Shown in pieces: positions 42,066-59,690 of a DNA stretch of 64,000 bases. The notes beneath the pieces are model-generated. The model ran no database searches. It was not told the origin of the DNA and saw only the letters and a list, made by a program, of their open reading frames with translations. The DNA comes from Gracilibacteraceae bacterium (lineage in GTDB: Bacteria; Bacillota; Desulfitobacteriia; Desulfitobacteriales; Syntrophobotulaceae): NCBI GenBank assembly GCA_031270805.1, contig JAISWK010000089.1, forward strand, positions 18,235 to 82,234, given 5' to 3'. The position numbers and the translations under genes were made by a program. Within the stretch, counting starts at the first letter, position 1; each line of letters opens with the position of its first letter.

Positions 42066-42854
42066 ATGCTTACAATTGGCATTGACAGCGGCAACCTGAA
42101 TACGAAGGCTGTGGCGTTGCGCAATGGCGAGGTAGTGGGCAGGGTAAAATCAGCCACCGGTTTCGACGCGCAACAGACGGCTGTGGCTGCGCTCGAAATG
42201 CTGCTCCGGGAAACCGGATTGCGGCGCGATAATGTGGACGCCATCGCAGCGACCGGAGTCGGCCGCCAACTGGCTGATTGCGCGACCGTGCGGATCAACG
42301 AGGTCGGTTCCGCCGCCCGCGGCGCCCATCTGGTCTGTCCCGCCCTGCGCATTGTGATCGACATGGGGGCCGAGGGCTGCCGGGCCGTGAAAATGGACGA
42401 TGCCGGCCGGCCGCAAAAATACGAGGTCAACGATCGCTGCGCCTCCGGCGCCGGAACTTTCGTGGAAAGCATGGCTCGCACGCTGCAGATTAAAACGGAA
42501 GAAATGGGCGCCTATTCCCTGCGCCACAGTAAAGATGTACCAATGAACGCTCAATGCGTCGTATTTGCGGAATCGGAAGTGATCTCGCTCATTCACCGCC
42601 GGGAGACAGTCGAGGATATCGCCCACGGCATCCACGCCGGGATAGCGAGCCGGGTCGCCGCTTTAATGCGCCGCCTCGGCGTCACGGCCGGCATCGGTTT
42701 TATCGGCGGCCCCGCCAATAACGCCGGCCTGGGGCAATGCCTGGAAGACGTACTGAAACAGCGCGTCGCCGTGCCGGATTTTCCCGAGTATATCAGCGCC
42801 CTTGGGGCGGCCGCTTTTGCCGCCGATCAACTGGAAACGGAGCAAAAGGAATGA
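42066..42854 (+). CDS. BadF/BadG/BcrA/BcrD-type ATPase (acyl-CoA dehydratase activase / BcrD-like)
   Basis: MLTIGIDSGNLNTKAV (ASKHA phosphate-1) and cluster-bridging Cys contexts NDRCASGAGTF and NAQCVVFAESEV. Confidence 0.8.
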   Translation: MLTIGIDSGNLNTKAVALRNGEVVGRVKSATGFDAQQTAVAALEMLLRETGLRRDNVDAIAATGVGRQLADCATVRINEVGSAARGAHLVCPALRIVIDMGAEGCRAVKMDDAGRPQKYEVNDRCASGAGTFVESMARTLQIKTEEMGAYSLRHSKDVPMNAQCVVFAESEVISLIHRRETVEDIAHGIHAGIASRVAALMRRLGVTAGIGFIGGPANNAGLGQCLEDVLKQRVAVPDFPEYISALGAAAFAADQLETEQKE

Positions 42855-43738
42855 GTGAACTGAATGTAAAAACTGTCGAATACTGGAAATGGCAGGAATC
42901 CAACTGGAAAAACCCGGATATAGGGGACTGGCGCGGCAGTCTCATCAGCGCCGGAGTGGATATCGGCTCCACCAGCACCCAGGCCGTGATCATGACGGAC
43001 GGCCGCCTCTATGCTTACGCCAGCATCCGCACCGGGGCCAACAGCCCGGACTCGGCCGTCGCCGCCCTGCGTTACGCCCTGGAAGCGACGGATTTGCGCC
43101 CGGAGGACATCGCTTGTACGGTGGGCACCGGCTATGGCCGCGTCAACGTTCCTTTTGCCGATAAAACGATCACGGAGATCACCTGCCACGCCCGCGGCGC
43201 CAACTATATTTACGGCCCCACCGTGCGCACCATCCTTGATATGGGCGGGCAGGACTGCAAGACGATCCGCTGCGACGAAAAAGGCAATGTCCTGTCCTTT
43301 ATGATGAACGACAAATGCGCCGCCGGCACCGGCCGCGGCATGGAGGTGATCGCCAATTTGCTGTCCGTACACGTGGAGGATATCGGGGCCATGTCTTTTC
43401 AAATCGATGAGGAACCGGGGGCGGTCTCAAGCATTTGCGTGATCTTCGCCAAGACGGAAGCGACCAACCTGATCCGGCAGGGCTGGACGGTGGAAAAAGT
43501 GCTTGCCGCCTACTGCCGGGCCATGGCTCAACGCGTGGTGCGCCTGCTGGAGCGCAACGGTATTGAGCCGGATTTTGCCATCACCGGCGGCATCGCCAAG
43601 AATATCGGCGTCGTGCGCCGGATTGAGGATATGATCGGGGCCAAGGTATTGCCCGCCCAATACGACACGCAGATCGCCGGCGCCGTGGGGGGCGCTCTCT
43701 TGGCCCGGGATCTGGCCTTGAAAGGCGGAAAACGATGA
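42851..43738 (+). CDS. BadF/BadG/BcrA/BcrD-type ATPase (BcrA-like second subunit)
   Basis: ATG overlaps the upstream stop (ATGA). ISAGVDIGSTSTQAV, NDKCAAGTGRGMEV, SSICVIFAKTEATNLI. The track ORF extends further upstream. Confidence 0.8.
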   Translation: MSELNVKTVEYWKWQESNWKNPDIGDWRGSLISAGVDIGSTSTQAVIMTDGRLYAYASIRTGANSPDSAVAALRYALEATDLRPEDIACTVGTGYGRVNVPFADKTITEITCHARGANYIYGPTVRTILDMGGQDCKTIRCDEKGNVLSFMMNDKCAAGTGRGMEVIANLLSVHVEDIGAMSFQIDEEPGAVSSICVIFAKTEATNLIRQGWTVEKVLAAYCRAMAQRVVRLLERNGIEPDFAITGGIAKNIGVVRRIEDMIGAKVLPAQYDTQIAGAVGGALLARDLALKGGKR

Positions 43739-46344: not shown

Positions 46345-48519
46345 TTAAGCCTTGCAAATCCTACACGGTATGCCATTATACGTCCACGTCCCCACATAGC
46401 TGTCCGAGGTTTCCATGTCGCCCGAGGTCAACACATTGGCGTTCGCCCGCCACATTCCGCCCAAATGCGGCTCGTTCCCCGTTTCCTCCGGAAACCACCA
46501 GCCGTATTCCACGGCGACGGTGTTTTTGGCCCCGGGCGTGATGTGGACGGTAAAAATCTGCTCGCCGCGCTCCGTCTGCACCAGGACGTCGTCCCCCTCG
46601 ACCAGACCGTGCGCCGCCGCCGTTTGGGCGGCCATCTCCGCCCACGGCGCCGGGTGCAGGCGGCGGAGCGCGGGCAGCCAGCGATGGCTGGAAGCGTAAT
46701 AGGGGTGGTAGCGCGAACCGGTCAGCAAACGCAAGGGAAAGCCCTCGGCTGCGGGCAGGGGCGCGGGCGGCGGAATCGCCGGTTCGGCCAGCGAACGCAA
46801 AAACTCGCTCGCCAGCTCGACCTTGCCCGTCCCGGTGGCAAAACCGCGCTCTTTCCCGTCCCCGGCCGGCAAAAGGTAGGAGAAATAGCTGTTGGCGGCA
46901 ACCGGCGCGTAAAGCCCCGTTTGGCAGAAACTATCCCAGCCGAGGCCCAAGGGCTCGAAGGCGGCCGCCAGCGCCTGTTCATAGTCCGGCCAGGGCCAGC
47001 GCCCTTCCTGCCCCAGGCGTTCGCCGAGACTCTTGAAAAAATCGTAGTCGGTGCGCCGCTCAAAATAGGGCGCCGCCGCCCCGTTGCCGCCGTAGGCAAT
47101 ATTGGCGATGCCCGCCTTTGTTTCCAGCACCGGTTTTTCCAGCGGCCCGGCAATCGGCAGGATATAATCCGCCAGCATGGCGGTCGGTGTGGGAAAAAGT
47201 TCCAGCGAAACCAGCAAGTCCAGGCTGTGGAGCGCCCGGTGTACCAGGCGACTGTCCGCCTGGGTCAGAAGGGGGTTGGCCGCCATGACGATCAGGGCCC
47301 GCACCGGATAGGGTTCGCCTTTGAGCATGGCCTGCCAGACGGCGTTCGGGTGCGCCGAGGTCAAATAGCGTTCCGGTGGGCGGAACCCGTGCCCGGCCAA
47401 AATCGCCGCCAGTTTTTCGTAGGCGGCGTAAGTTTGTAATTTGAGCCGGGGAGCGTTCAGCTGCGCCGCTTTAAGCTCGGCCCCCATCTCGGCGCTGAGC
47501 TCAAAATCCACTTCCGGCCGGAAGTCCGGCATGGCGGTGAGCAGCGACGCGCCGGGGTAGTCCAGGTTGCCGGTTATGGCGCGCAGGGCGGCGATGGCCT
47601 GGTGAGTCGGCAGACTGTTTTGGCCGAGTTGATCCAGCCCGCGCCCGGTATAGAGCGTGGAGGGCGGCTCTTTAGCGTAAAGCCTGGCCAGGCGGGTGAT
47701 TTCCTCCGCCGCCAGTCCGCAGACCCCGGCCACCTCGCCCGGCGAATAGGGCCCGGTGTGGGCCGTGAGCTCCGGGAAACCGTGGCACCATTCGGCCACG
47801 AAGTCCCGGTCATAGAGCTTTTCCCTGATGACCACATGGAGCAGAGCCAGGGCCAGGTAGGGGTCGGCCCCCGGCTGAATCGGCAGGTAGAGCGTAGCTT
47901 CCCTGGCCGTCGCGGTTTGGCGCGGGTCAATGACCACGAGTTCGCCCCCGTTCTGGCGGAACTGGCGCACGGTCTGCCAAAACAGCGAATTATCCGAATC
48001 GGCGGGGTTTACGCCCCAGAGCACGGCGCAATTCGTGATCCCGGGCATAAGCTCCATGTCTATGTGCCGGCCGTACATGAGCAGATTTGTCCAGACGCCG
48101 GGATTCCAGCAGATCTGCCCGATACCCATGTTGTTGGGGCTGCCGAACAGCGTCATAAAACGGTGCAGCGGCCAGTAGGTCGTGTGGGGGCCGCCGATGG
48201 CGCTGGCCAGCGTCTTGGCCCCATATTGCCCCTTGAGATCGCTCAAGCGGTCGCTGATCTCCGCCAGGGCCGTTTCCCAGCTGATTTGCTCGAACTGTCC
48301 CGCCCCGCGCTCCCCCGTCCGTTTGCGCGGAAAATTGATTCTGGCCGGGTGGGCCAAAAACTGAGGCGCCGTCGGCCAGCGGCGGCAGTGGCGCAATATA
48401 TTTTCGTCGTAGGGAAATCGCCCCGGATCGGGGCGCACCTTGATTAAGCGCCCGTCCTCCACGGTTGCGAGCAGTCCGCATTGATAGCCGCAAAAACGGC
48501 AATTTACATGTTTTTCCAT
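46345..48519 (-). CDS. molybdopterin (bis-PGD) oxidoreductase catalytic subunit, acetylene-hydratase/transhydroxylase-like clade, no Tat signal (MopB-2)
   Basis: Start trimmed to the ATG after GAGGG (MEKHVNCRFCGYQCG, the CxxCxxxC FeS0 motif). Blocks FPTPTAMLADYILPIAG, GTGKVELAS, GWWFPEE. Confidence 0.8.
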   Translation of the reverse strand: MEKHVNCRFCGYQCGLLATVEDGRLIKVRPDPGRFPYDENILRHCRRWPTAPQFLAHPARINFPRKRTGERGAGQFEQISWETALAEISDRLSDLKGQYGAKTLASAIGGPHTTYWPLHRFMTLFGSPNNMGIGQICWNPGVWTNLLMYGRHIDMELMPGITNCAVLWGVNPADSDNSLFWQTVRQFRQNGGELVVIDPRQTATAREATLYLPIQPGADPYLALALLHVVIREKLYDRDFVAEWCHGFPELTAHTGPYSPGEVAGVCGLAAEEITRLARLYAKEPPSTLYTGRGLDQLGQNSLPTHQAIAALRAITGNLDYPGASLLTAMPDFRPEVDFELSAEMGAELKAAQLNAPRLKLQTYAAYEKLAAILAGHGFRPPERYLTSAHPNAVWQAMLKGEPYPVRALIVMAANPLLTQADSRLVHRALHSLDLLVSLELFPTPTAMLADYILPIAGPLEKPVLETKAGIANIAYGGNGAAAPYFERRTDYDFFKSLGERLGQEGRWPWPDYEQALAAAFEPLGLGWDSFCQTGLYAPVAANSYFSYLLPAGDGKERGFATGTGKVELASEFLRSLAEPAIPPPAPLPAAEGFPLRLLTGSRYHPYYASSHRWLPALRRLHPAPWAEMAAQTAAAHGLVEGDDVLVQTERGEQIFTVHITPGAKNTVAVEYGWWFPEETGNEPHLGGMWRANANVLTSGDMETSDSYVGTWTYNGIPCRICKA

Positions 48520-48540
48520 AATGGCCCTCGCCGCCCGGCG

Positions 48541-48564
48541 CAACCGCAACCGCAACCGCAACCG
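48541..48564. repeat. (CAACCG)x4 tandem hexamer in the radical-SAM/MopB-2 spacer
   Basis: caaccgcaaccgcaaccgcaaccg read directly. It lies 22-45 nt upstream of the MopB-2 ATG. Confidence 0.9.
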
Positions 48565-48602
48565 CAGGAGTACGCCTGACGCCTCCGCGGCGTCCTCTTG
48601 TC

Positions 48603-49955
48603 TCAAGGCTCAACTCTCAGCCTGTTCCCCTCCGCATCGGTCAAATGGTAGAGGCAGAACGGCACTAAGCGCCCGTCGCGGCTCATCACCACCATGCTGC
48701 ATTCGCGGGTTTTCTGCAAATCCAGGTTATAACAGTCCATATAGTTCATCACCACTATGGCCAGCCCCGCCCGATGGCGCGGAAAACGCCGCCGGGCGAT
48801 GTCCGCCAGCACGGAACCCTGCGGGCTCTGGGGGTCGAAGGCCGCCAGATAGTCCGCTTCCGTAATCAGGCGCGTCAAGGGCGTCGGTTTGCCGCCTCTG
48901 GACAGCAGGTAGGTGGAAGAAGTGCAGAGGGGGTGCGAGCAGCCCAGAGACCAAAAGTCGCCGGGTTCGAGCAGCCCGCCGCTCTGCGCCGCCAGCAGCC
49001 GAATTACGTCGCCCTGGGTCAGCCTTTTTTGCCTGCGGGCGTCGAAGCGCCGAAATTCCGCCGGGGCGCCGCTTTGACCGACCTGGAACCGCCCGGAACC
49101 GAAGGCCGGTTGATAAGCGACGCCGGCCACAATATCCCGGTTGTCCAGGGCGAAGCGCAAGACGTCGCCGATCTGGCTCTCATTCACCCCTTCGATTATA
49201 GTCATAGCCAGGCAAATTTGCAAGCCGGCCCGGCGGCAATTGTCCAGCACGGCGAGCTTATCGGCCAAAAGCGCCGTCCCCCGCGTTTTTTGGAACACCG
49301 CGTCCGTCACGCCGTCAAATTGCAGGTAAATCCCGGTGGCCCCCGCCTCCGCCAGCGCCGCCGCGTAAGCCTCGTCCCGGGCGAGGGCGAGGCCGTTCGT
49401 GTTGATCTCGATGAACTCGAAGCCCACGGAGCGCCCCAGGCGGATGATTGCCGGCAAGTCGGGCCGGATGGTCGGCTCGCCGCCCGTCACCTGAATGGCG
49501 GTCTGGGGAGTCGTCGCCTGCATAATGTGTTCAAAGGTCCGGCCCAGTTCCTCCAGGGTCGGATCCGGCGGCGCCTCGCCCCGGCGTTCTTCTGCCGACA
49601 TGAAACAGACGGGGCAGCGCAGGTTGCACCGCTCCGTCACCTCGATTTCCACCAAGGTCGCCCGCCGGGCGTGGCGGGCGCAGAAGCCGCAGTCCAGTGG
49701 ACAGCCCCGCTTCGCCGCCGAGCGGAAAAAACGGGGCGGGGCAGGGGGCAGACGCAACGAATTCATTCGGAGAAAACTATCTTTGTCCGGCCAAAGACAG
49801 GATTCCGTCCGGCCGTGCTCCGGGCAGTCCTTGACCAGCCATACTTCGTTGCCCTGCGCCTCCACCCGGGCGGGGCTGCTTTTCAGGCAAAAGGGACAGA
49901 GCGCTTCCGTCGGCCAGAGGAGTTCCCCGTTCCCGGCCAAATCCGCAGGGCTCAT
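48603..49955 (-). CDS. radical SAM protein with N-terminal Cys knuckles and an additional Cx3Cx2C cluster motif
   Basis: Start is the ATG overlapping the NrfD stop (ATGA). CPFC...CPEHG, CPLDCGFC, canonical CNLRCPVC, TGGEPT. Confidence 0.8.
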   Translation of the reverse strand: MSPADLAGNGELLWPTEALCPFCLKSSPARVEAQGNEVWLVKDCPEHGRTESCLWPDKDSFLRMNSLRLPPAPPRFFRSAAKRGCPLDCGFCARHARRATLVEIEVTERCNLRCPVCFMSAEERRGEAPPDPTLEELGRTFEHIMQATTPQTAIQVTGGEPTIRPDLPAIIRLGRSVGFEFIEINTNGLALARDEAYAAALAEAGATGIYLQFDGVTDAVFQKTRGTALLADKLAVLDNCRRAGLQICLAMTIIEGVNESQIGDVLRFALDNRDIVAGVAYQPAFGSGRFQVGQSGAPAEFRRFDARRQKRLTQGDVIRLLAAQSGGLLEPGDFWSLGCSHPLCTSSTYLLSRGGKPTPLTRLITEADYLAAFDPQSPQGSVLADIARRRFPRHRAGLAIVVMNYMDCYNLDLQKTRECSMVVMSRDGRLVPFCLYHLTDAEGNRLRVEP

Positions 49956-50908: not shown

Positions 50909-51445
50909 TCAATTGATATAGTAGACGCCGGGCTGCGTGTTCAGCTCGCCCAAAAGCCATTGTCCGCCCTTCGCGCCGACGAGCTGCGCCACCTCGCTGG
51001 CCGGGTCGTCCAAGTCGCCGAAAGAACGGGCTTTCTGATGGCAGGTATTCACGCAATAAGGTTTTTCCCCCGCGTCCACCCGCTCCTTGCAGAAGGTACA
51101 TTTCCAGGCGACGCCGTCATGGCTGCTTCTGGCCCCGTAAGGGCAGCTCATAATGCAGGCCTTGCAGCCGACGCACATATCCTGATCCACCCAGACGATG
51201 CCGTCTTCCCGCTGCTGGGAAGCCTTCGTCGGGCAGGCGTCCACGCAGGGCGTGTTCCGGCAGTGCATACACAGAAGCGGAACGTGGGTCATGTGGACAT
51301 GGGGAAAAAGCCCCGTCACCCCGTTGGTGACCACTGGATTGTAAATCACGCTCACCGGCAGATCATTGTGTACCCGGCAGGCGACGGTGCAGCTCTGGCA
51401 GCCCACGCATTTTCCCCGGTCGATAACCATTACATACTGCGGCAC
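50909..51445 (-). CDS. 4Fe-4S dicluster-domain electron-transfer subunit (DmsB/PsrB-like, four Cys groups)
   Basis: GTG start after AAGGGGGG. CVGCQSCTVAC, CMHCRNTPCVDACP, CVGCKACIMSCP, CTFC...C..C. Confidence 0.85.
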   Translation of the reverse strand: MPQYVMVIDRGKCVGCQSCTVACRVHNDLPVSVIYNPVVTNGVTGLFPHVHMTHVPLLCMHCRNTPCVDACPTKASQQREDGIVWVDQDMCVGCKACIMSCPYGARSSHDGVAWKCTFCKERVDAGEKPYCVNTCHQKARSFGDLDDPASEVAQLVGAKGGQWLLGELNTQPGVYYIN

Positions 51446-51458
51446 TTGCTTTCCCCCC

Positions 51459-53678
51459 TTACTCCGCTTTGTAAATCCGGCACAGGAGACCGCGGTTGGC
51501 CCAGCTGCCGCCCAAGGGATCGCAGTGGGCGTCCTCGGTGCTGGTCAGGACATTGGCGTTGGACTCCAGGCAGCCGCCCAGTTCCGGCAGCCGCATATCC
51601 CGCTCCGGGAACCACCAGCCGCGCTGGGTCATCACGACCCGGGGCATGACGGCTTCGGTCAGATTGGCCTTTTGCCGGATCCGGCCCCGCCGGGTCTCGA
51701 TCCACACCCAGTCGCCGTTCTTGATCCCATAGTGTCCCGCCGTGCGCGGGTTAATGTCCGTATAAGGTTCGTGGGCCAGAAAACGGACTGACGGCAGGTT
51801 AAAATGTTCCGAGTGGTGGTAGGGCATGAATCCGCCGGCGGTGGTCAGCACCAGCGGAAATTCCTCCGCCAGTTCCGGATTCGCCGTCTCGCTTTCCGCC
51901 GGGGGGACATACACCGGCAGGGGAGGATAGCCCAACTGTTCCAAAATGCTGGATTTGAGCTCGACCTTGCCCGAGGGCGTGCCGAACCCGTGCTCCAGGT
52001 AACGGTTGAACTCCCGCTCCGGATAGTGGAAGCGCGGCCACTCGACAAAGGCGTCGTAGCTCTCCGAGCCGTAGAAGTTCTCCGCGAGATTGGCGATCTG
52101 GTAAAAATAGGCGTCTTCCAAAGTTTCCCACGGCCAGTGTTCCGCCTGACCCAGCCGCAGCCCGAGCAGCCGCCAGAAGTCGAAGTCCGTCTTGCGCTGA
52201 TAAAGCGGGGCAATCGCCCGCTGCGACGCCACCAGGGCGTCGGAGACGCCGTAATTTGTGTGGACGGACGGGCGTTCCATCGAACCGGCAATCGGCAGCA
52301 CATAATCCGCCAGCATGGCGGTCGGGGTCAGAAAATAATCGCAGCAGGTCATGAACTCCACTTTTTCCAGCGCCGCCAGCACTTCCCGGCTGTTGCCGTA
52401 AGAATTGACCGGATTGGTGGCCGAAACCAGGAGGGCCCGCACCTGGTAGGGCTTGCCGCTCAGGATGGCCCGGTAAACCGACGGCGGGTGGGCCTCGCAC
52501 ATCCATTCGGCGGTCGGCGCCTTGCCCCAGAACTTCTTCGACTGCTCGGCGATCAGCGTGTAGCCCGGCCAGGTGGTCAGTTTGTATTTATCCGCCCCCA
52601 GCTGCTTGCCTTTCTGTTCTTCCGGCAAAAGGTCGTTGGCTTCCATTTCCTCGTCGGTCAGGTAGTCCTGGGCCGGGCCGGTCAGGATGTCGGCTCCGGG
52701 CCCGTCCAGGTTGCCGGTCAAGGCCCGGAGGATGGCGCGGGCGTGCATACATTCGCCGGCGGGAGGGCCCTGCTGATCCACTGCCGGCGCCCACTGGATA
52801 TTGCCCGGGGTATTGGCGGCGTACATGCGCGCCCCGGCCCGAATCTGCTCCGGGTCCAGCCAGGTCAGCTCCGCCGCCCATTCCGGCGTGAAATCCTTCA
52901 CATGCTTGCGCAACTCTTTGAAGCCTTCGCAGTAATTTTTGACAAAATCGGCGTTGTGCAGTTTCTCCGTAATGATGACATTGATCCAGGCCAGCGCCAG
53001 GGCCAGGTCGGAACCGGGCCGGATCGGCAGCCACAGGTCGGCCTTGGCGGCGCTCTCCGTGTAGCGGGGGTCGATGACGATGACTTTCAGGCCATTCTCC
53101 CGCTGCAGGTTGGTAAAACCGGCCTGGGCCGGCATACTGGAGGCGCCGGGATTCTGGCCCCACAGCACGATACAGCGCGCCTGGCCCACGTCGATCTCAA
53201 AAGGGCACCAGCCATAAACGGTCATTTCCACCATAAAAGTAGGAATCCAGCACAAATGAGCGTTATGGAAACTGTTCGGGCTGCCGAAAGCGTTCATAAA
53301 ACGCCGCCGGGCCCAATCGTCCGTGCGCAGGGTGCCGCCCGCCGTCGCCACCGCTTCGGCGCCGGATTCGGCCCTGATCTGCTCCAGCTTCGCGCCGATT
53401 TCGTCAATCGCCTGCTCCCAGGAAATGGATTCCCACTGGCCGCTGCCCTTGGGCCCGATCCGTTTGAGCGGGTGGTTGACCCTGTCCGGGTGGTGCAGGT
53501 GCTGAAGCTGCAAGTTGCCGCGGCAGCAAAGACCGCCGCTTGAAGCCGGGTGATCCGGGTCGCCTTCAAACCGCAGCAGTTCCCCGTCCTTGACGTAGGC
53601 GAGTACGCCGCAGTTATTATGACAGAAGTAGCAGCAACATTTCCGCACTTCCACGCCGGCTTCCGATTCGTTGCTCAT
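51459..53678 (-). CDS. molybdopterin (bis-PGD) oxidoreductase catalytic subunit, acetylene-hydratase/transhydroxylase-like clade, no Tat signal (MopB-1)
   Basis: Start trimmed to the ATG after GGGGGAG (MSNESEAGVEVRKCCCYFCHNNCG). Blocks RRFMNAFGSPNS, FLTPTAMLADYVLPIAG, GTPSGKVELKSSILEQLGYPPLP, RGWWFPE. Confidence 0.82.
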   Translation of the reverse strand: MSNESEAGVEVRKCCCYFCHNNCGVLAYVKDGELLRFEGDPDHPASSGGLCCRGNLQLQHLHHPDRVNHPLKRIGPKGSGQWESISWEQAIDEIGAKLEQIRAESGAEAVATAGGTLRTDDWARRRFMNAFGSPNSFHNAHLCWIPTFMVEMTVYGWCPFEIDVGQARCIVLWGQNPGASSMPAQAGFTNLQRENGLKVIVIDPRYTESAAKADLWLPIRPGSDLALALAWINVIITEKLHNADFVKNYCEGFKELRKHVKDFTPEWAAELTWLDPEQIRAGARMYAANTPGNIQWAPAVDQQGPPAGECMHARAILRALTGNLDGPGADILTGPAQDYLTDEEMEANDLLPEEQKGKQLGADKYKLTTWPGYTLIAEQSKKFWGKAPTAEWMCEAHPPSVYRAILSGKPYQVRALLVSATNPVNSYGNSREVLAALEKVEFMTCCDYFLTPTAMLADYVLPIAGSMERPSVHTNYGVSDALVASQRAIAPLYQRKTDFDFWRLLGLRLGQAEHWPWETLEDAYFYQIANLAENFYGSESYDAFVEWPRFHYPEREFNRYLEHGFGTPSGKVELKSSILEQLGYPPLPVYVPPAESETANPELAEEFPLVLTTAGGFMPYHHSEHFNLPSVRFLAHEPYTDINPRTAGHYGIKNGDWVWIETRRGRIRQKANLTEAVMPRVVMTQRGWWFPERDMRLPELGGCLESNANVLTSTEDAHCDPLGGSWANRGLLCRIYKAE

Positions 53679-53803
53679 TGGACTCCCCCTTTTTTCCCTG
53701 CTTTCCTTTTCGCGCCCTCTGCGGGCCGCGACCGCCTCACTTGCTTTGATTTTACCGCAACAGCGCGTCCCAGGCAAGCAGGTCTTTCACATTATACTTT
53801 CAA

Positions 53804-53819
53804 TGCAAGAAATGTGCCA
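53804..53819 (-). promoter_or_regulatory. sigma-54-type -24/-12 promoter element (TGGCAC-N5-TTGCA)
   Basis: The reverse complement reads TGGCACATTTCTTGCA, about 125 nt upstream of the MopB-1 ATG. GG-N10-GC spacing verified by hand. Confidence 0.55.
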
Positions 53820-53957
53820 CAAGCCGGCCAATGGCTTTAATAGCGTGTTGAGAGCGTTTTGCGCCCGGGCGCCGCCCTTCCTTTGTTACTCATTTTGCTA
53901 CATTGAGCGACGGTTGTATCATTTTGGGAATAGATGCGCCGCCGTCCGCGCAGCGCA

Positions 53958-53986: not shown

Positions 53987-54063
53987 CAGTCTCAATTGCG
54001 TGAGTATACCGCAGTCGCGCTGCGGCTTCCGGTGTCAGGCAAAATTTGTGCGGGGGGTTTGTT

Positions 54064-55206
54064 ATGGAATACGTCGACTATGGCCAGACCGGACTCCGGG
54101 TTTCCCGTTTCGGGTTGGGCGGCATGAGGTTTCCGGCGGACGCCGGCGAGGCGATTCAAATGATTCGCTTCGCCATTGATAACGGCGTCAACTATATCGA
54201 CACGGCCTATGTTTACGGCGACAGCGAAGAAATCATCGGCCGGGCGCTGAAAGACGGTTATCGCGAGCGCGTCGTCCTGGCGACCAAGAGTCCGCTCTGG
54301 ACCGTCCGCAGCCACGCCGACTTTGAAAAAGGGCTGGACGAGCAGCTCCGCCGCCTCGGGGTCGATTATATTGACATTTACATGCACCACAACCTGTTTC
54401 AAAAACACTGGCAAAGGGTCAAGGATTTGGACGGCCTGGGCTTCCTGGATGATATGGTAAAAAAAGGTAAATGCCGTTTCCGCGGTTTTTCCATTCACGG
54501 CACGCTGGAAGCATTCCGGGAAGTGCTGGACGCCTACGATTGGGACATGGCCCAGATTCAGCTGAACATAATTGACGCCTGCCAGCAGGCGGGAGTCGCG
54601 GGGTTGCAATACGCGGCCGCTAAGGGCGTGCCGGTCGCGATTATGGAATCCCTGCGCGGCGGCGACTTAATCAATTTCGCGCCGCCGGGCGTGGACGAGC
54701 TGATCCGGGCCTTCCCCACGCGGCGTTCGCTGGCGGAGTGGTGCTTTCGCTGGCTTTACAATATGCCGGCGGCGACGGTCATCCTCAGCGGCACCTCGAC
54801 TTTGGCCCAATTGCAGGACAATATCCGTATTTTCGCGAACTCGGCCCCGAACGTGATGAACGCGGCGGAATTGGATTTGATCGAAAAAATCCGGACCCTG
54901 TTCGAGGCGGCGGCCGGCGTGGGCTGCACGGCCTGCAATTATTGTATGCCCTGCCCCCAGGGCGTGGCGATTCCCGAAATTATCCGCATGTACAAGAACC
55001 TGCTCCGCAATCCGAACTATCGCATTGACAAAATGTATTACCACCGCTCCGTCATCCCCAAGGGCAATGGTGCGGATCAATGTATGGACTGCGGCGTTTG
55101 TGCGGAAAAATGTCCGCAGTCGCTGCCGATCGCCGAGGTTTTGCGCCAGGCGCATGAGGCGCTGGGAACCTACATGCGCCTGATGTATGAACCGGAAGAG
55201 GGGTAA
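54064..55206 (+). CDS. aldo/keto reductase with C-terminal 2x[4Fe-4S] ferredoxin-like domain
   Basis: MEYVDYGQTGLRVSRFGLGGMRF, IDTAYVYGDSEE. C-terminal CTACNYCMPCPQG...CMDCGVCAEKCPQ. Confidence 0.85.
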   Translation: MEYVDYGQTGLRVSRFGLGGMRFPADAGEAIQMIRFAIDNGVNYIDTAYVYGDSEEIIGRALKDGYRERVVLATKSPLWTVRSHADFEKGLDEQLRRLGVDYIDIYMHHNLFQKHWQRVKDLDGLGFLDDMVKKGKCRFRGFSIHGTLEAFREVLDAYDWDMAQIQLNIIDACQQAGVAGLQYAAAKGVPVAIMESLRGGDLINFAPPGVDELIRAFPTRRSLAEWCFRWLYNMPAATVILSGTSTLAQLQDNIRIFANSAPNVMNAAELDLIEKIRTLFEAAAGVGCTACNYCMPCPQGVAIPEIIRMYKNLLRNPNYRIDKMYYHRSVIPKGNGADQCMDCGVCAEKCPQSLPIAEVLRQAHEALGTYMRLMYEPEEG

Positions 55207-55437: not shown

Positions 55438-55480
55438 CTTGCCCCTTGCCGCAACGTGAACATAAAAGGTGGGACTAAAC

Positions 55481-56236
55481 ATGACGAAAATAGGTGAGTT
55501 GATCCGGGAAGAAGCTGCGAACTTGCCCCTGGACGATTCGAGCCGGGAATCCGCCCGGGCGTTTGACCGCGCCCTCCGGCCGGAAGAAGCGGCCGCCTGC
55601 CTCCTCCGGATCGGTCTCGCGCCGGAGGACTTTCTCGGCGCCCCCCGGACGGGAGAAGCCCTCAGCCGCCTGGTGGCGGCGCACCAGCGGACAGTGCCGT
55701 TTGAAAACCTGGAAGCGGTGGAGGAAAGGCAGACGCCGTCCCTGCGGATCGATGATCTCTGGCAGAAGATCGTCCAGCGAGAGCGCGGGGGCTGGTGCTA
55801 TGAACTGAACGGCCTGTTCGCCGCTCTGCTGCGCGGTCTGGGCTACAGGACGACGGCCCATATCGCCAATATTTGCAAGAATGATCAGATCATCACCGGG
55901 CCGCCCCGGCACCGGATCAACCTGGCCTACCTGCCGGAAGGGGTCTTTTTCTGCGACGTCGGTTTCGGCGGCATCGCCGCGCCGGGTTTTGCGCCGTTTT
56001 ACACCGATCACGCCCTGCAGGCGGGGCCGGGAGGGACTTTTGTGTTCCGCCCGTTCGGCGCGGGGGGCAAAATCCTCTGCCAGAGCAAGGAGGGCCGCGA
56101 AACGCCGCTGATGGAGATTGAGCCCGCTCCGCGGGAGGGAACATTCTTCCTGCCTTACAATGAGTACAGCGCCCACGACCCCGGTTCCCCGTTCATCCGG
56201 CAGGCGATCAAGCGGCTGCCGGAATGGGCGGGTTAG
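55481..56236 (+). CDS. arylamine N-acetyltransferase (NAT family)
   Basis: RTVPFENLEAV, catalytic-Cys context RGGWCYELNGLF, His/Asp context HRINLAYL...FCDVGFGG. ATG after AAGGTGGG. Confidence 0.85.
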   Translation: MTKIGELIREEAANLPLDDSSRESARAFDRALRPEEAAACLLRIGLAPEDFLGAPRTGEALSRLVAAHQRTVPFENLEAVEERQTPSLRIDDLWQKIVQRERGGWCYELNGLFAALLRGLGYRTTAHIANICKNDQIITGPPRHRINLAYLPEGVFFCDVGFGGIAAPGFAPFYTDHALQAGPGGTFVFRPFGAGGKILCQSKEGRETPLMEIEPAPREGTFFLPYNEYSAHDPGSPFIRQAIKRLPEWAG

Positions 56237-56617: not shown

Positions 56618-56961
56618 GTAGCGTACCCGAGAGTGAACGGACTGACACCGGCCTCCGCAAGGAGGAAAATGGGACTGAGCCGGGTAAAACAAAACAAAGC
56701 TTAACCGGACGAAAGCCCAAGAACGAGCCGGCCATAGGCGGCAAAACAGGAAGAAACCGAATATAAGCAACTTTCGAGCTGACGGATCTAAAAGCAAGCG
56801 CTCATGAACGTCAGCCTGAGGCGGGGATCCGCTTCACGGGGCCGGCAGGGAAACCGGACGGCCTAACATTATTGTAAGAAAGTCAGCATCGTCCGACGCA
56901 ACTGCGCGCTGGGCGGGTGAATGCAACACACCTGATTTTCTTACGAAAACAGGTGTTTTTT
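56618..56961 (+). ncRNA. candidate structured non-coding RNA or long terminated leader (class unknown)
   Basis: Bounded by P2 and an intrinsic terminator, with no credible ORF. Hand-found stems include cctcc-GCAA-ggagg (56652..56665), gctgacg/cgtcagc (56778..56815), gcgg-ggat-ccgc and ggccgg...ccggacggcc. Confidence 0.45.
56928..56961 (+). terminator. rho-independent terminator
   Basis: acacctg(a)ttttc-ttac-gaaaacaggtgt followed by TTTTT. Confidence 0.75.
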
Positions 56962-57187
56962 GTTCTGTGGGGCAAGGGAAGGAGTGAGCGAATGAGTCTG
57001 AGTTTGAGACGCTGCGCCGTATGGCGCCCTCCGTAGCCCGCCGGATTGCTATCCGCGGTGTGCATGTTTTAAGGGGGTCGGAGGCGAGGAAATGAGGCGG
57101 CCGGTCTTGCTGCTGATTCCGCCGGACGCCGCGCGCTTCGTTCCCCGCAATGACAGTGAATCGGATGCAATGCAATGTACGTTGTGC

Positions 57188-57280
57188 GTATGTGGATTCT
57201 GCGACGGAGGCGCGACCCCCGGTAATGGAACCGGCGCGCCTCCGCGCAGGCAGTTCGGCTTGGGCGGCTCGGAGACTCGC
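57188..57280. repeat. mosaic intergenic repeat, family B copy 1 (62-nt core plus 29-nt module)
   Basis: The 62-nt core is 57 of 62 identical to 59750..59811. The 29-mer at 57252..57280 is the exact reverse complement of 59914..59942. Confidence 0.85.
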
Positions 57281-57326
57281 CGGGAGCCTGTTGCACTCGT
57301 TTTTTCTCGGAAAGGAGAAAAAAAAC

Positions 57327-59690
57327 ATGAAATTCCATTCCCAAAGAATCCACCGGCGCCGCAGGGTGGCGCTACTGACGGCGATACTGCTCTTTATCGG
57401 ACTGTTCGCCGTCCTGACCGTACCGGTGCTGGCCACTCCCGGCGCCTACACCGTCACATTCGCGGTCACCAACACCACGGTACAGGTTAACGGCTCCACC
57501 ACGCTGACCGCCACCTCGGACAGCAGCGGCGTCCTTAACTTCAACACCACGCCGGCGACGAACTACGCCGTATCCGTGGCGTCAATCGCCATCACCCCGT
57601 CGTCAGGTACTACGGACGCCGTAGTCCTCAAGACCGGGCCCAACGCCTTCCAGCTGCAGGCGGTCGACCAGGCAGTCACCTTAACGATTGTCGCCGACCC
57701 GCCCTTTACCGGCCAGACGACGGCCGGCGGCTACGCCATCAATAACGAGACTCAACTCCTGGCGTTAGCGACGGCTGTCAACGGCAGCACCGATCCTATC
57801 GCCCTCCCCGGCTATACCTTCACCTTGACGGACGATATCGCGCTCTCCGACCCCTGGACGCCCATCGGCGGGGCCGGCGGCGTCAGCGGGACAGTCCCGA
57901 GCAGCAACGGCTTTGCCGGCATCTTTGACGGACAGGACTTCACGATCAGCGAGCTTGATCTCAACCCGACCATCACCGGCAGCACGAACAACACAGGCTA
58001 CGGCCTGTTCGGTTTCGTGAACGGCGGCACGGTCGGCAACCTCACGGTCAGCGGCGAGATCATAATAGACGATACCAGCGTAGCGCAGGACATCGGCGGC
58101 GTCGTCGGCTACACCAACGGCAGTCTGTACAACCTGACGAGCGATGTCACAATCAGCGTTGGCAAAGAGTGCTCCAATGTCGGCGGGGTAGTGGGCGCGA
58201 TGGAGAACTTAACCACGCCGATCACCGCCCGCTACCTGGCCAATGTGGCTCAAATCCTGGCCGGCGGCCACGTCGGCGGCGTCATCGGCGGCATGTATTC
58301 CGGCCCGGGCAACCTTAACACCATCGACCGCTGCTTCAACACCGCAATGGTCGCAGGCCTCCAGCAAAGCAAGACCTATGTCGGCGGCGTCGTGGGTTAC
58401 GCCTGCGCCGCCATCACGAACACTTACAACACCGGCGAGATCCTGGTGGCCGGCGGCGACAATATTAAGTGCTACCTCGGCGGGATCACCGGTATCCTCG
58501 TTCACTATAGCACGCCCCGTTCCAGCCTGGCCAACTCCTACAGTACGTCCGGCTTCGTGGGCTATATGACCGATTACGCCCAGTATCTCTACGCCTCGGC
58601 GGACAACGACAGCACGACGCCGATCACGAACAGCTATTGGGTGGTGCCTTCTGCCGGCGCGCTCGGTTACGACCAGGCCGTCTTCGGCACGCACACCGAT
58701 GTGTCGGCTCAGGCTGCGTCCGCCCTGACCCCGACCCTGCTGGGCAGCGCCTTTACCGGCAGCGCCCCGGCAACCCTGGACTGGAGCGGCGCCTATACGG
58801 ATCTTCAGACCGGCACGCCTACCCCGCCCGCCGACACAGACGACCTGAACATGATATTCTTGGATGGCACGGCCACGGTAAACGGGACCGGCACGAAGGG
58901 AGACCCCTATAACAGCCTGACCAGCGCCCTCGGCGACCTTACCGCTACGCGGCCGGTCGTCTATATCCTCGGGAAACTGACGATCAGCGCCACGACCAAT
59001 ATTGATTCCTCCACCCTGCCGATCGGCAACGCCGTGATCACACGCAGCTGCTCGTACACCGGCGACCTCTTTGACGTGACCGGCGGTACCCTGACCCTGG
59101 GCGACGTCACGGTGCACGGCAACAGCGCCAATGTCGCCAATGCCAGCGGCGCTTTGGTCTGGATCGACGGCGGCTCGCTCGTCGTGGGCCCCGGGGCGAC
59201 CCTGCAAAAAAATGACACTCAGACCAACGGCGGCGCTATTCATATCTTCAACGGCGACGCGACCCTTGACGGTGGCCAGATCTCCAGCAACGAGGCCAAG
59301 ATCGGCGGCGCGGTCTATATTGACAGCGACGGCGTCTTTACCCTCAAGGACGGCGAGGTGGGCAACAATATCGCCGACCGCTACGCCCCCGGCATCTATG
59401 TGACCGCCAGCGGCACGGTGGTGCTTGATCCGGGCAACGCCACCACCTTAAGCATTGCGGGCGGTAACCCGATTTATCTGCCCTCGGGCGTATCCTTCAA
59501 TATCGATTCCTCTCTGGGAAGTCTGACCAATTCTGTACCGGTCGCCTTTGCCAGCCCGGCGAAATTTGACAGCGTCGCCTTCGTGGCCAACCCCTCTTAC
59601 ATTGGCGCGAGCAGAGCAAAGTTAGCGGCCCCGCAGGTTACTCTCGATGATGACGGCGATACGGAAATCTATATTGATTCGGTGCCGTAA
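57327..59690 (+). CDS. large secreted/surface protein with GLUG-like (GGVVGY) repeats and C-terminal beta-helix-like repeats
   Basis: ATG 9 nt after AAAGGAG. Signal-like N-terminus MKFHSQRIHRRRRVALLTAILLFIGLFAVLTVPVLA. Repeats IGGVVGYTNG, VGGVVGA, VGGVIGG, VGGVVGYA and GGAIHIFNGDATLDGGQISSNEAKIGGAVYI. Confidence 0.75.
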   Translation: MKFHSQRIHRRRRVALLTAILLFIGLFAVLTVPVLATPGAYTVTFAVTNTTVQVNGSTTLTATSDSSGVLNFNTTPATNYAVSVASIAITPSSGTTDAVVLKTGPNAFQLQAVDQAVTLTIVADPPFTGQTTAGGYAINNETQLLALATAVNGSTDPIALPGYTFTLTDDIALSDPWTPIGGAGGVSGTVPSSNGFAGIFDGQDFTISELDLNPTITGSTNNTGYGLFGFVNGGTVGNLTVSGEIIIDDTSVAQDIGGVVGYTNGSLYNLTSDVTISVGKECSNVGGVVGAMENLTTPITARYLANVAQILAGGHVGGVIGGMYSGPGNLNTIDRCFNTAMVAGLQQSKTYVGGVVGYACAAITNTYNTGEILVAGGDNIKCYLGGITGILVHYSTPRSSLANSYSTSGFVGYMTDYAQYLYASADNDSTTPITNSYWVVPSAGALGYDQAVFGTHTDVSAQAASALTPTLLGSAFTGSAPATLDWSGAYTDLQTGTPTPPADTDDLNMIFLDGTATVNGTGTKGDPYNSLTSALGDLTATRPVVYILGKLTISATTNIDSSTLPIGNAVITRSCSYTGDLFDVTGGTLTLGDVTVHGNSANVANASGALVWIDGGSLVVGPGATLQKNDTQTNGGAIHIFNGDATLDGGQISSNEAKIGGAVYIDSDGVFTLKDGEVGNNIADRYAPGIYVTASGTVVLDPGNATTLSIAGGNPIYLPSGVSFNIDSSLGSLTNSVPVAFASPAKFDSVAFVANPSYIGASRAKLAAPQVTLDDDGDTEIYIDSVP

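Follow-up and report, generated by a model that had tools for sequence, protein, structure and literature searches.

A radical SAM protein of 450 aa, encoded at 48603-49955 on the minus strand of the 64,000-nucleotide stretch of DNA analysed here (the window) and called rSAM throughout, belongs to a clade which, judging from sequence and gene order, is a near-obligate part of a conserved Tat-less module, MopB1-FeS-NrfD-rSAM-MopB2. This module was found across at least five phyla, both of its MopB proteins fall in the acetylene hydratase (AH) clade, and no description of it was found in the literature searched.

The rSAM gene and its surroundings

The rSAM gene is a single unbroken ORF with Radical_SAM and Zn_ribbon_HMPTM domains. 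Its minus-strand location is absent from the original prediction; the plus strand of 48603-49955 is ruled out as coding by its many stop codons. The predicted 450-aa protein was recovered with all the named Cys motifs, each matched to window coordinates, and the proposed overlap with the NrfD gene is also present, the rSAM ATG (49955-49953) lying over the NrfD TGA stop codon (49954-49952) as GGGAAATGAGC on the minus strand, with the overlap itself reading ATGA. A public gene call (P0001) uses an alternative start five codons downstream, which gives a protein of 445 aa. While the overlap is real in the window, the coupling to NrfD which had been read from it is not conserved, with NrfD and rSAM separated by 30 nt or less in only 12/91 loci; co-transcription of rSAM with the genes of the NrfD complex is plausible. 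The genes and elements concerned are as follows:

46345-48519, minus strand: MopB2, 724 aa from ATG 48519, second and more divergent AH-clade MopB, without Tat signal (PDB 2E7Z)
48539-48566, unstranded: perfect hexamer repeat (GGTTGC)x4.7 in the 83-nt rSAM-MopB2 spacer (TRF, sequence)
48603-49955, minus strand: rSAM, 450 aa
49952-50875, minus strand: NrfD-type membrane anchor, 307 aa, stop codon overlapping the rSAM ATG (Pfam NrfD/NrfD_2)
50909-51445, minus strand: 4Fe-4S dicluster electron-transfer subunit, 178 aa, without signal peptide (Pfam Fer4_11; NCBIfam DsrO/ArrB/TtrB-like)
51459-53678, minus strand: MopB1, 739 aa from ATG 53678, AH-clade Mo/W-bisPGD subunit, without Tat signal (PDB 2E7Z)
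53749-53820, minus strand: promoter-like sites upstream of MopB1 (consensus scan only)

MopB1, the start of which is backed by a Shine-Dalgarno sequence, matches acetylene hydratase (PDB 2E7Z) with E 5e-125 and 422 bits, and MopB2 matches the same structure with E 1e-79 and 272 bits. The operon of five genes probably begins at the promoter-like sites, and terminator-like matches within it were at chance level (13 found vs 12 expected). The one Moco riboswitch in the window precedes another, divergent ORF, and not the rSAM operon. No transcripts of the window locus were found in public sequencing runs.

Metal sites and catalytic motifs of rSAM

The following motifs were located in the rSAM gene by translation and by alignment to homologues, including the solved tetraether synthase GDGT-MAS, the four-cofactor ligand set of which was taken from PMC9433317:

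49791-49913, minus strand: rubredoxin-like mononuclear metal site, residues 15-55, ligands C20, C23, C44 and H47 (Pfam PF23545)
49671-49703, minus strand: N-terminal auxiliary [4Fe-4S] site CPLDCGFCARH, ligands C85, C89, C92 and H95 (alignment to GDGT-MAS)
49605-49628, minus strand: radical-SAM Cx3Cx2C cluster motif CNLRCPVC, C110, C114 and C117 (translation, alignment)
49470-49487, minus strand: TGGEPT (GGE) SAM-binding motif, T157-GGEPT162 (translation, homologue conservation)
48813-48827, minus strand: SPQGS motif, S377-PQG-S381, private to the rSAM family (homologue alignment)
48654-48941, minus strand: C-terminal auxiliary-cluster domain with C339, C344, Met403, C419 and C434 (alignment to GDGT-MAS)

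The rubredoxin-like site, made up of C20-P-F-C23 and C44-P-E-H47-G, has a Cx2C-x20-Cx2H spacing identical to that in GDGT-MAS and coincides with the Zn_ribbon_HMPTM Pfam match at residues 15-55. C85, C89, C92 and H95 align with C73, C77, C80 and the His of GDGT-MAS, CNLRCPVC begins 17 residues past C92, and Met403 aligns with GDGT-MAS Met439 at the labile-ligand position. The C-terminal cluster site (three Cys and one Met) had been overlooked in the original prediction. Eleven Cys/His ligands make up the first three sites, and these, along with C344, C419 and C434, are invariant in 112/112 rSAM homologues from loci retrieved with two independent seeds; hence the motifs are not a product of chance. 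The SAM-binding residues F118, GGE, Q282 and R289 are retained across the family and are the same in GDGT-MAS. The Radical_SAM match (PF04055, residues 104-269) scores 90 bits vs a cutoff of 29.5 bits, and a structure search with the model matched the predicted fold to radical SAM structures. rSAM is therefore predicted to be a radical SAM enzyme with intact catalytic motifs and the four-cofactor architecture of GDGT-MAS/Tes, its predicted cofactors being three [4Fe-4S] clusters (N, RS and C, the last with a labile Met) and the Fe of the rubredoxin-like site.

Family placement

The motif layout had been described as unusual for MoaA, anaerobic sulfatase maturases and HemN-type enzymes, and this is correct for those three types, but it exactly matches that of the solved four-cofactor GDGT-MAS. 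The suggested membership in the COG1964/'HMPTM' group with the archaeal tetraether synthase was confirmed by HMM searches, by alignment to PDB 7TOL (E 1e-73, 29% identity) and by Foldseek, in which GDGT-MAS (7TOL) was the top match of the rSAM model (E 1e-36, TM 0.76). Tes/GDGT-MAS (M. jannaschii MJ0619; 7TOL/7TOM; NF045702; formerly 'HMPTM', COG1964) has its fold in common with rSAM, and the ligand spacing is identical at all four sites, including the His ligands and the labile Met. The two differ in that the position of Tyr459, an invariant residue of archaeal Tes, is occupied by Val in 104/112 (93%) of the rSAM family, and in that the C344-M403 segment, which flanks the two lipid pockets in GDGT-MAS, is about 37 residues shorter (58 aa vs ~95 aa in Tes-type, i.e. 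Tyr-type, relatives). In addition, rSAM is bacterial, has the private SPQGS motif and is encoded in a Mo-enzyme operon, not among lipid genes.

Scores were obtained for the window protein and for Gordonibacter, Anaerolineales and representative family members, and all were below the curated equivalog cutoffs. For Tes (NF045702, cutoff 450 bits) these were 305 bits for rSAM and 298–335 for the others, and for TrsS (NF045646, cutoff 490 bits) 382 bits for rSAM and 329–395 for the family, while genuine TrsS proteins score 503–572 bits. A neighbour-joining tree sets the rSAM family apart as a clade of its own; the family has at most 44% identity to outsiders and condenses to a single full-length representative among the 485 representatives with E<1e-30. 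Identity as Tes or TrsS is ruled out by the curated cutoffs, by the place of rSAM in the tree and by the genes around it, and on this sequence evidence rSAM appears as a compact, exclusive bacterial clade which is neither.

As originally proposed, rSAM is not MoaA (91 bits vs a 284-bit cutoff, TM 0.46, no Mob_synth_C (PF06463) match), nor is it of the anSME/SPASM type, since SPASM-family HMMs match only core residues ~100-270 with 37–50 bits, anSME 4K36 is only at Foldseek rank 50, and neither a SPASM nor a twitch domain is present. HemN-like class C enzymes (the menaquinone methyltransferases MqnK/MenK) were found neither among the Pfam matches nor among the best 25 of 48 NCBIfam matches. All three identities are thus ruled out by the HMM scores, the domains present and the order of the fold matches, and neither the HMMs nor Foldseek gave a confident match to a characterised maturase.

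Conservation of the module

In loci retrieved with rSAM as seed, a MopB gene lies within 1.5 kb of rSAM in 70/73 and a MopB1 orthologue is present in 55/61, while in the opposite direction rSAM is found in 32 of the 36 informative MopB1-seeded loci; the gene is therefore not absent from most orthologous Mo-operons, an outcome which the original prediction had named as counting against it. An identical gene set is found in Geobacter, Dehalobacter and Anaeroselena, the MopB1 orthologues are 55–71% identical across at least five phyla, and the median identity to the window proteins is 49% for rSAM vs 52% for MopB2. The spacing between rSAM and MopB2 is 30 nt or less in 43/51 loci, and the conserved tight junction of rSAM is thus on the MopB2 side, not with NrfD. 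The five proteins of the module co-evolve (mirror-tree r 0.80-0.92), although MopB2 is not favoured as the partner of rSAM, with a partial r of 0.41 for rSAM and MopB2 given MopB1 vs 0.54 for rSAM and MopB1 given MopB2. A twin-arginine (Tat) motif was sought in all MopB1 and MopB2 orthologues and was found in none, which indicates that the module faces the cytoplasm.

There are several variations on this arrangement. In the Geopsychrobacteraceae, a divergent MopB about 0.7 kb downstream takes the place of MopB2, one rSAM is followed by a tandem pair of MopB2 paralogues in seven loci of the Negativicutes type, and in some Coriobacteriales DUF2064-rSAM-FerDUF169 is a stand-alone cassette. The DUF2064 gene (CofC/MobA-like nucleotidyltransferase fold; PDB 3CGX-like) adjoins rSAM in 53/83 genome loci, and two relatives from TrsS-type cassettes (P0126 and P0130) are natural fusions of a MobA-like NTP-transferase with a radical SAM protein. 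Since no DUF2064, DUF169 or CCG gene was found within 10 kb in the window and most Bacillota loci, these are not obligatory local partners. Moco-biosynthesis genes border the cluster in Geobacter and Dehalobacter, chemoreceptor genes are inserted into it in Geobacter and Desulfuromonadaceae (of the dCache type in the latter), and MFS transporters and TetR or LuxR regulators are found near module loci. The module is transcribed in gut communities, and contigs assembled from pig-gut metatranscriptomes cover MopB2 and rSAM of the Coriobacteriia module at much lower depth, by a rough measure, than MopB1-FeS-NrfD.

Possible roles of rSAM

Our tentative preference, at somewhat less than even chances, is that rSAM is dedicated to the MopB2 branch as an enzyme of maturation or cofactor tailoring. 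It would act as a low-flux accessory enzyme dedicated to the module, using SAM-derived 5'-deoxyadenosyl radical chemistry beside the open-site C-terminal cluster on a target which could be the Mo/W cofactor, a nucleotide-linked precursor of this cofactor or the MopB2 active site, and coupling of lipid tails would not be part of its role. Low-potential electrons would enter at the rubredoxin and [4Fe-4S]N sites on the surface, donated by ferredoxin-DUF169, CCG (HdrD-like) and flavin-reductase proteins where these are encoded nearby, and MopB1-FeS-NrfD would be the redox arm that links this pathway to quinone. Maturation or tailoring over bulk catalysis is suggested by the DUF2064 adjacency, the MobA-like fusions and the flanking Moco-biosynthesis genes, as well as by the tandem MopB2 loci with one rSAM and the stand-alone Coriobacteriales cassettes. 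Furthermore, Tes consumes SAM in stoichiometric amounts, two molecules for each C-C bond (PMC9433317), and such consumption by rSAM would be hard to square with the flux of respiration or catabolism.

The mirror-tree analysis without a preference for MopB2, the replacement of MopB2 in the Geopsychrobacteraceae and the lack of DUF2064, DUF169 and CCG near rSAM in the window and most Bacillota loci count against this role. It is also weakened because, to our knowledge, canonical bis-PGD enzymes are made without any radical SAM enzyme other than MoaA, and because the only characterised homologue works on hydrophobic lipid tails, while translational coupling and operon position would fit a stoichiometric catalytic subunit equally well.

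Such a catalytic subunit is possible but rather unlikely. rSAM would here be a co-catalyst which attacks a small cytoplasmic substrate, probably hydrophobic or aromatic, by abstracting a hydrogen atom at an unactivated C-H bond, perhaps with the radical trapped on the C-terminal cluster as in GDGT-MAS. The product would then be processed by MopB2, an AH relative of hydratase/hydroxylase-like type, and by MopB1-FeS-NrfD as quinone-linked oxidoreductase. This would agree with the location of rSAM between structural genes, often translationally coupled, with its conservation at about the level of MopB2 and its co-evolution with the entire module, with the joint presence of chemoreceptors, MFS transporters and TetR/LuxR regulators, which suggests an imported small-molecule substrate, and with MopB2 having no electron-transfer partner of its own, like the non-redox acetylene hydratase. 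However, if rSAM used SAM stoichiometrically as Tes does, a catabolic or respiratory pathway could not afford the cost without regeneration of SAM, and the lower pig-gut depth of MopB2/rSAM, rough as that measure is, also argues against it. A more specific proposal, which we consider decidedly unlikely, is that the Tes-fold rSAM and the AH-like MopB2 make up a two-enzyme unit for anaerobic functionalisation of an unactivated C-H bond, in which rSAM would abstract a hydrogen atom, perhaps keeping the radical bound in a cluster-S-C intermediate, after which the Mo/W enzyme would add water-derived oxygen or hydrate the product, and electrons would pass to the quinone pool via MopB1-FeS-NrfD. If true, this would be a new oxygen-independent mode of C-H activation in gut, soil and sediment anaerobes.

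A Tes-like role in joining or functionalising the terminal carbons of membrane lipids, or of an NrfD-bound menaquinone tail, with membrane-spanning or brGDGT-type lipids as products, is very unlikely. Among solved structures the nearest is that of GDGT-MAS, which couples lipids by C-C bonds, the labile Met and all four cofactor sites are retained, the quinone-binding NrfD adjoins rSAM in the window, and bacterial Tes homologues have been proposed as brGDGT synthases (PMC8941075; PMC11868695), all of which would fit such a role. Against this, rSAM falls below the Tes equivalog cutoff, has mostly lost Tyr459 and lacks the ~37 residues flanking the lipid pockets, the adjacency to NrfD is not conserved, and the neighbourhoods contain zero lipid-biosynthesis genes and always Mo-enzyme genes. 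In addition, we know of no tetraether or membrane-spanning lipids in the cultured carriers Geobacter, Dehalobacter, Desulfitobacterium, Gordonibacter and Adlercreutzia. Finally, it is extremely improbable that rSAM is a redox-only or degenerate protein, serving as iron-sulfur electron wire for MopB2, or a chance neighbour: its four metal centres, two of them at the surface in GDGT-MAS, and the lack of a FeS subunit dedicated to MopB2 would suit a wire, but the motifs for SAM binding and for the radical-SAM cluster show no variation among the 112 sequences, and conservation of synteny over at least five phyla in both seed directions excludes a chance neighbour.

Significance

The function of the bacterial tetraether-synthase homologues is an explicitly open question (PMC9433317; PMC8941075), and with one large, separable bacterial clade now tied to a specific molybdoenzyme module, it becomes testable in the genetically tractable Gordonibacter, Eggerthella and Geobacter. 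As this previously unnamed bacterial branch is almost always found in the module, the bacterial "Tes homologues" probably include at least one large group that works for molybdoenzymes and not for membrane lipids. Tes homologues in Chloroflexota, Desulfobacterota and Acidobacteriota have been counted as potential brGDGT producers (PMC11868695), and the rSAM clade is present in lineages of all three. With E-values of ~1e-73 to 1e-90 vs Tes models it probably passes the usual BLAST thresholds, and since its gene context speaks against a lipid role, its members are likely false positives for palaeoclimate-proxy lipids. The module, for which the literature searched gave no description, joins a Tat-less NrfD-anchored MopB complex to a radical SAM enzyme and a further MopB. 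From the conservation of MopB1 and the transcription of the module in the gut, it may represent a widespread, as yet unrecognised metabolic function or a new form of Mo/W-cofactor tailoring.

Comparison with known systems

The three-subunit layout of MopB1-FeS-NrfD is shared with Psr/Phs (PsrABC/PhsABC-type) and the Eggerthella dehydroxylases, but these are Tat-exported, whereas the MopB1 and MopB2 orthologues have no Tat signal. The absence of Tat sets the module apart from the published descriptions of the Eggerthella-type dehydroxylases (Dadh/Hcdh/Cadh). rSAM was also considered as a known catechol-dehydroxylase accessory gene and rejected, because no radical SAM gene is mentioned for the published clusters (PMC7028382, PMC11887054, 10.1101/2025.01.17.632430, PMC11585353) and the characterised enzymes are Tat-exported. 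Acetylene hydratase is closest to both MopB1 and MopB2, with the FS0 cluster and the Cys metal ligand kept in both (Cys143 of MopB1 aligns with the tungsten ligand Cys141, as does Cys137 of MopB2 with the metal ligand), but its catalytic Asp13, located after the second FS0 Cys, is replaced by His in MopB1 and by Gly in MopB2.

For rSAM itself, the best-scoring named HMM is that of TrsS, reportedly a radical SAM (seleno)protein family (NF045646) of Haft and Tolstoy, 2025. The two are alike in length (~440 aa) and have the same cofactor ligands, and a CCG/dicluster protein as well as a MobA/CofC-like nucleotidyltransferase are recurrent companions of the Tes-like radical SAM protein in both systems. 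However, rSAM falls outside the TrsS clade in the neighbour-joining tree and contains no selenocysteine, and the TrsS cassette (DUF7479, methyltransferase, C_GCAxxG_C_C, TrsS, AMP-ligase, CobW or phosphatase) has no AH-clade MopB or NrfD; its genes, present around true TrsS, were not found beside the window rSAM or family members with annotated neighbourhoods. MoaA (GTP 3',8-cyclase) and the anSME/SPASM maturases, the classic radical SAM enzymes beside molybdo- and metallo-enzymes, have the radical-SAM core in common with rSAM. The tungsten-cofactor oxidoreductase radical SAM maturase TIGR04317 is of another, SPASM-type subfamily (50 bits, core only) and has a partner of the AOR family, but it is likewise a putative, context-defined enzyme conserved beside a pterin-cofactor oxidoreductase.

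The radical SAM gene and its operon

The original prediction placed a radical SAM gene (rSAM) at 48603-49955, which was correct as to position but left out the strand: the plus strand is non-coding here, and the minus strand contains a single uninterrupted ORF of 450 aa. The predicted overlap of its ATG (49955-49953) with the TGA stopcodon of the upstream NrfD anchor gene (49954-49952) is present as an ATGA junction; in one public gene call the start lies five codons further downstream, giving a protein of 445 aa. All Cys motifs and the TGGEPT motif predicted were found in the translation, but a C-terminal cluster site had been overlooked.

Motifs of rSAM (minus strand)
C20-PF-C23 and C44-PE-H47-G, knuckle motifs (translation, coordinates verified)
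C85-PLD-C89-GF-C92, N-terminal Cys motif (translation, coordinates verified)
C110-NLR-C114-PV-C117, radical SAM motif (translation, coordinates verified)
T157-GGEPT162, GGE-type motif (translation, coordinates verified)
C339/C344, Met403, C419, C434, C-terminal cluster site (additional to the original prediction)

Operon genes in order of transcription
53678-51459, minus strand, MopB1, 739 aa, first gene
51445-50909, minus strand, 4Fe-4S subunit (FeS), 178 aa
50875-49952, minus strand, NrfD anchor, 307 aa, stop overlapping the rSAM ATG
49955-48603, minus strand, rSAM, 450 aa
48602-48520, minus strand, rSAM-MopB2 spacer, 83 nt
48519-46345, minus strand, MopB2, 724 aa, last gene

Promoter-like sites are found upstream of MopB1, and a consensus promoter downstream of MopB2, ahead of a P-type ATPase gene. 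The nearest match of both MopB proteins is acetylene hydratase (AH; 422 bits for MopB1, 272 bits for MopB2), and both retain the FS0 cluster motif and the tungsten-ligating Cys, but the catalytic Asp13 of AH is replaced by His in MopB1 and Gly in MopB2. No twin-arginine signal was detected on MopB1, MopB2 or FeS of the window or on any orthologue examined, from which the module is predicted to face the cytoplasm. MopB1, which lacks this signal in the window and in every orthologue examined (L001-L163), is nevertheless encoded with an NrfD-type anchor. The 83 nt spacer contains a tandem repeat of the hexamer GGTTGC, perfect over 4.7 copies (48539-48566); rSAM and MopB2 abut or overlap in most other genomes.

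Conservation of the module

The annotated loci of Geobacter, Dehalobacter and Anaeroselena contain the same five genes in identical order, and in Geobacter and Dehalobacter the cluster is flanked by Moco-biosynthesis genes. A scan seeded with rSAM (one genome per species) gave 307 relatives, and the best 80 of these 307 loci came from Bacillota (Gracilibacteraceae, Peptococcaceae, Desulfitobacterium, Selenomonadales/Sporomusaceae and Syntrophomonadaceae), Desulfuromonadota, Chloroflexota, Acidobacteriota, Syntrophorhabdales and many Coriobacteriia (Gordonibacter, Adlercreutzia, Eggerthella, Raoultibacter, Enterorhabdus). Using tblastn with the window proteins, a MopB was found ≤1.5 kb from rSAM in 70/73 informative loci, and a MopB1 orthologue in 55/61. 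The reverse search, of metagenome contigs seeded with MopB1 (55-71% identity), recovered rSAM in 32/36 informative loci, bearing out the predicted place of the gene in the Mo-operon; in three of the four loci without it, the arrangement is inverted and runs off the locus edge. Based on these counts, rSAM is shown to be a near-obligate member of a two-MopB module of proteins lacking Tat signals.

MopB2 follows rSAM in 51 loci, and the order MopB2-DUF2064-rSAM was found in 39 loci, which are from Coriobacteriia or from similarly arranged metagenome contigs of gut or termite-gut origin. A distance of ≤30 nt was measured between rSAM and MopB2 in 43/51 loci, and between NrfD and rSAM in only 12/91, with intervening genes in 58/91. 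Median identity to the window protein is 65% for MopB1, 59% for FeS, 52% for MopB2, 49% for rSAM and 43% for NrfD. Distance matrices of all five proteins are correlated (pairwise r = 0.80-0.92), which indicates that the module evolves as a unit; partial correlations did not single out MopB2 as the partner of rSAM.

Chloroflexota and Coriobacteriia have the core within a bigger conserved gene set, which also encodes a hydrolase of the MBL fold, an HdrD-like Fe-S protein with a CCG domain, DUF2064 (nucleotidyltransferase fold resembling CofC/MobA and PDB 3CGX), a ferredoxin-DUF169 fusion and a flavin reductase. None of these genes was found in the 64 kb window, and most Bacillota loci lack them as well. 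DUF2064-rSAM-FerDUF169 occurs without a nearby MopB in a few contigs of termite-gut Coriobacteriales, and in Negativicutes-type loci one rSAM is followed by two tandem MopB2 paralogues. In Geopsychrobacteraceae, Malonomonas and Trichloromonas (L026, L027, L030-L032, L037, L049, L063, L101) the place of MopB2 is taken by a divergent MopB (~320/265 bits vs MopB1/MopB2) located ~0.7 kb downstream of rSAM, with no ORF ≥100 aa in the gap in L026. The MopB1 orthologue of Gordonibacter faecis (L070:520-3420) has a ~200 aa C-terminal extension with OCRE-domain matches, absent in other lineages. Between NrfD and rSAM, Geobacter and Desulfuromonadaceae have one or two genes for methyl-accepting chemotaxis proteins with dCache or 4HB sensors (L001:7727-9813, L016:5686-9780; also L033, L085, L086, L091), a hint that the module may be connected with a small-molecule signal.

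Other features of the window
54046-55206, plus strand, aldo/keto reductase fused to a 4Fe-4S dicluster domain, divergent from the operon
55469-56236, plus strand, arylamine N-acetyltransferase, divergent from the operon
56760-56897, plus strand, Moco riboswitch (RF01055, 55 bits, E 2e-10)
57150-59690, plus strand, 846 aa ORF downstream of the riboswitch
42066-42854 and 42737-43738, plus strand, BcrAD/BadFG-type ATPase gene pair, ~2.6 kb past MopB2
11503-11856, plus strand, tmRNA gene (RF00023, 151 bits)

The riboswitch and 846 aa ORF are on the opposite strand to the MopB operon, ~3 kb away; the ORF had no match in Pfam, NCBIfam or PDB, and represents an orphan protein controlled by Moco or else a spurious reading frame of GC-rich sequence. 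BcrAD/BadFG-type ATPases are activators of the 2-hydroxyacyl-CoA dehydratase or benzoyl-CoA reductase type, and this pair was not found in related annotated loci.

No public sequencing run containing the window was found. Pig-gut metatranscriptome contigs cover the orthologous Coriobacteriia cluster L156, suggesting that it is transcribed. Word depth in that assembly is 8-28 for MopB1-FeS-NrfD and 0-9 for the CCG-to-DUF169 part, including rSAM fragments, which may mean a lower abundance of the rSAM/MopB2 part, although contig depth reflects expression poorly and carried-over DNA may contribute.

Fold, cofactors and phylogeny of rSAM

Pfam recognises the Radical_SAM core (residues 104-269) and an N-terminal 'HMPTM' zinc ribbon (residues 15-55). 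Among solved structures, the one strong sequence match is to the archaeal tetraether lipid synthase (GDGT-MAS/Tes, MJ0619) of M. jannaschii (7TOL, E 1e-73), followed by MoaA (1e-13). MJ0619 was formerly named 7,8-dihydro-6-hydroxymethylpterin dimethyltransferase, which explains the 'HMPTM' and COG1964 labels. Foldseek comparison of an AlphaFold model (pTM 0.83) likewise placed 7TOL/7TOM far ahead of all else (E 1e-36, TM 0.76), with MoaA at TM 0.46 and anSME at rank 50, as the original prediction had anticipated. GDGT-MAS contains a rubredoxin-type site (C9x2C12x20C33x2H36), a [4Fe-4S]N cluster (C73/C77/C80 and His), the RS cluster and a [4Fe-4S]C cluster with labile Met439 (PMC9433317), and each of these ligands has an aligned counterpart in rSAM. 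In an alignment of 112 rSAM family members, C20, C23, C44, H47, C85, C89, C92, H95, C110, C114, C117, C344, C419 and C434 are 100% conserved and Met403 95%, and SAM-contact residues are retained. By sequence and comparison, rSAM is thus shown to be a radical SAM enzyme that is intact and has the Tes architecture. The predicted likeness to COG1964/tetraether synthase was thus right, but the rubredoxin-like knuckle and extra Cx3Cx2C motif, given the ligand-by-ligand match, belong to the known Tes layout and are not new.

The two best NCBIfam models fall below cutoff, TrsS (a radical SAM selenoprotein family) with 382 bits (cutoff 490) and Tes with 305 bits (cutoff 450). The Gordonibacter and Anaerolineales orthologues and the 50%-identity cluster representative score 329-395 (TrsS) and 298-335 bits (Tes), vs 503-572 bits for genuine TrsS proteins from an exhaustive search. 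Of the 485 representatives that this search gave at E<1e-30, a single full-length one (380 bits) stands for the whole family, the following matches being ≤297 bits. A neighbour-joining tree of the 112 members and 130 representatives has the family as an exclusive clade, outside the TrsS clade; identity is 43-99% within it (median 55%) and ≤44% to outsiders. The S377-P-Q-G-S381 motif is invariant in the family and not present elsewhere, the position of archaeal Tes Tyr459 is Val, and the C344-Met403 segment is fixed at 58 residues, vs ~95 in Tyr-type (Tes-like) relatives and ~73 in TrsS. Its counterpart in GDGT-MAS, in the C-terminal domain beside the lipid pockets, holds the flexible stretches 376-381 and 398-401, and the shorter segment would remodel substrate binding. 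The comparison shows the family as a distinct clade, and the sub-cutoff scores, exclusive clade and family-specific features rule out assignment to Tes or TrsS.

Possible functions

The likeliest reading, which we hold tentatively, is that rSAM would be a dedicated low-flux accessory enzyme serving the MopB2 branch, either to tailor the cofactor or to mature the active site. This is favoured because Tes-type chemistry consumes SAM stoichiometrically (PMC9433317), no conserved junction is tighter than that with MopB2, partners resembling nucleotidyltransferases are found repeatedly as neighbours and as fusions, and a single rSAM can precede two MopB2 paralogues. A role as co-catalyst on an imported small substrate is possible but rather doubtful. 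Bacterial Tes-like enzymes have two recurring partner classes, CCG/dicluster proteins and nucleotidyltransferases of the MobA/CofC type, from which we infer small-molecule or cofactor chemistry over lipid coupling. It is unlikely that the answer lies outside all four readings named here. Modification of lipids or quinone tails is improbable; bacterial Tes homologues are of unknown function according to the Tes papers, with brGDGT synthesis as hypothesised role (PMC9433317; PMC8941075), and are counted as markers of brGDGT potential in environmental work (PMC11868695). That rSAM is a redox-only protein or a chance neighbour is very hard to credit, with its SAM-binding and radical SAM motifs invariant in the 112 sequences and the synteny conserved across at least five phyla.

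Comparison with known systems

Papers on gut molybdenum-dependent dehydroxylases make no mention of a radical SAM gene, and the MopB1-FeS-NrfD-rSAM-MopB2 module was not described in the literature searched, so that as a whole it appears undescribed. A cytoplasm-facing NrfD-anchored molybdoenzyme is unusual, since complexes of the Psr/Phs/Ttr type are exported, as are the Eggerthella dehydroxylases. The TrsS cassette, recurrent at L168, L170, L164-L167 and L169, consists of a dicluster/CCG oxidoreductase, DUF7479, a methyltransferase, C_GCAxxG_C_C, TrsS, an AMP-ligase and CobW or a phosphatase (His_Phos_1), with an XDH-type Mo enzyme upstream at one of the loci L164-L170. Some close relatives in TrsS-type cassettes are fused to an NTP-transferase domain resembling MobA, in part together with an HD domain, and others to a methyltransferase, AMP-ligase or DUF5714. 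Unlike the rSAM module, this cassette lacks the AH-clade MopB and NrfD, and the rSAM enzyme is a new, context-defined variant inside a known fold family.
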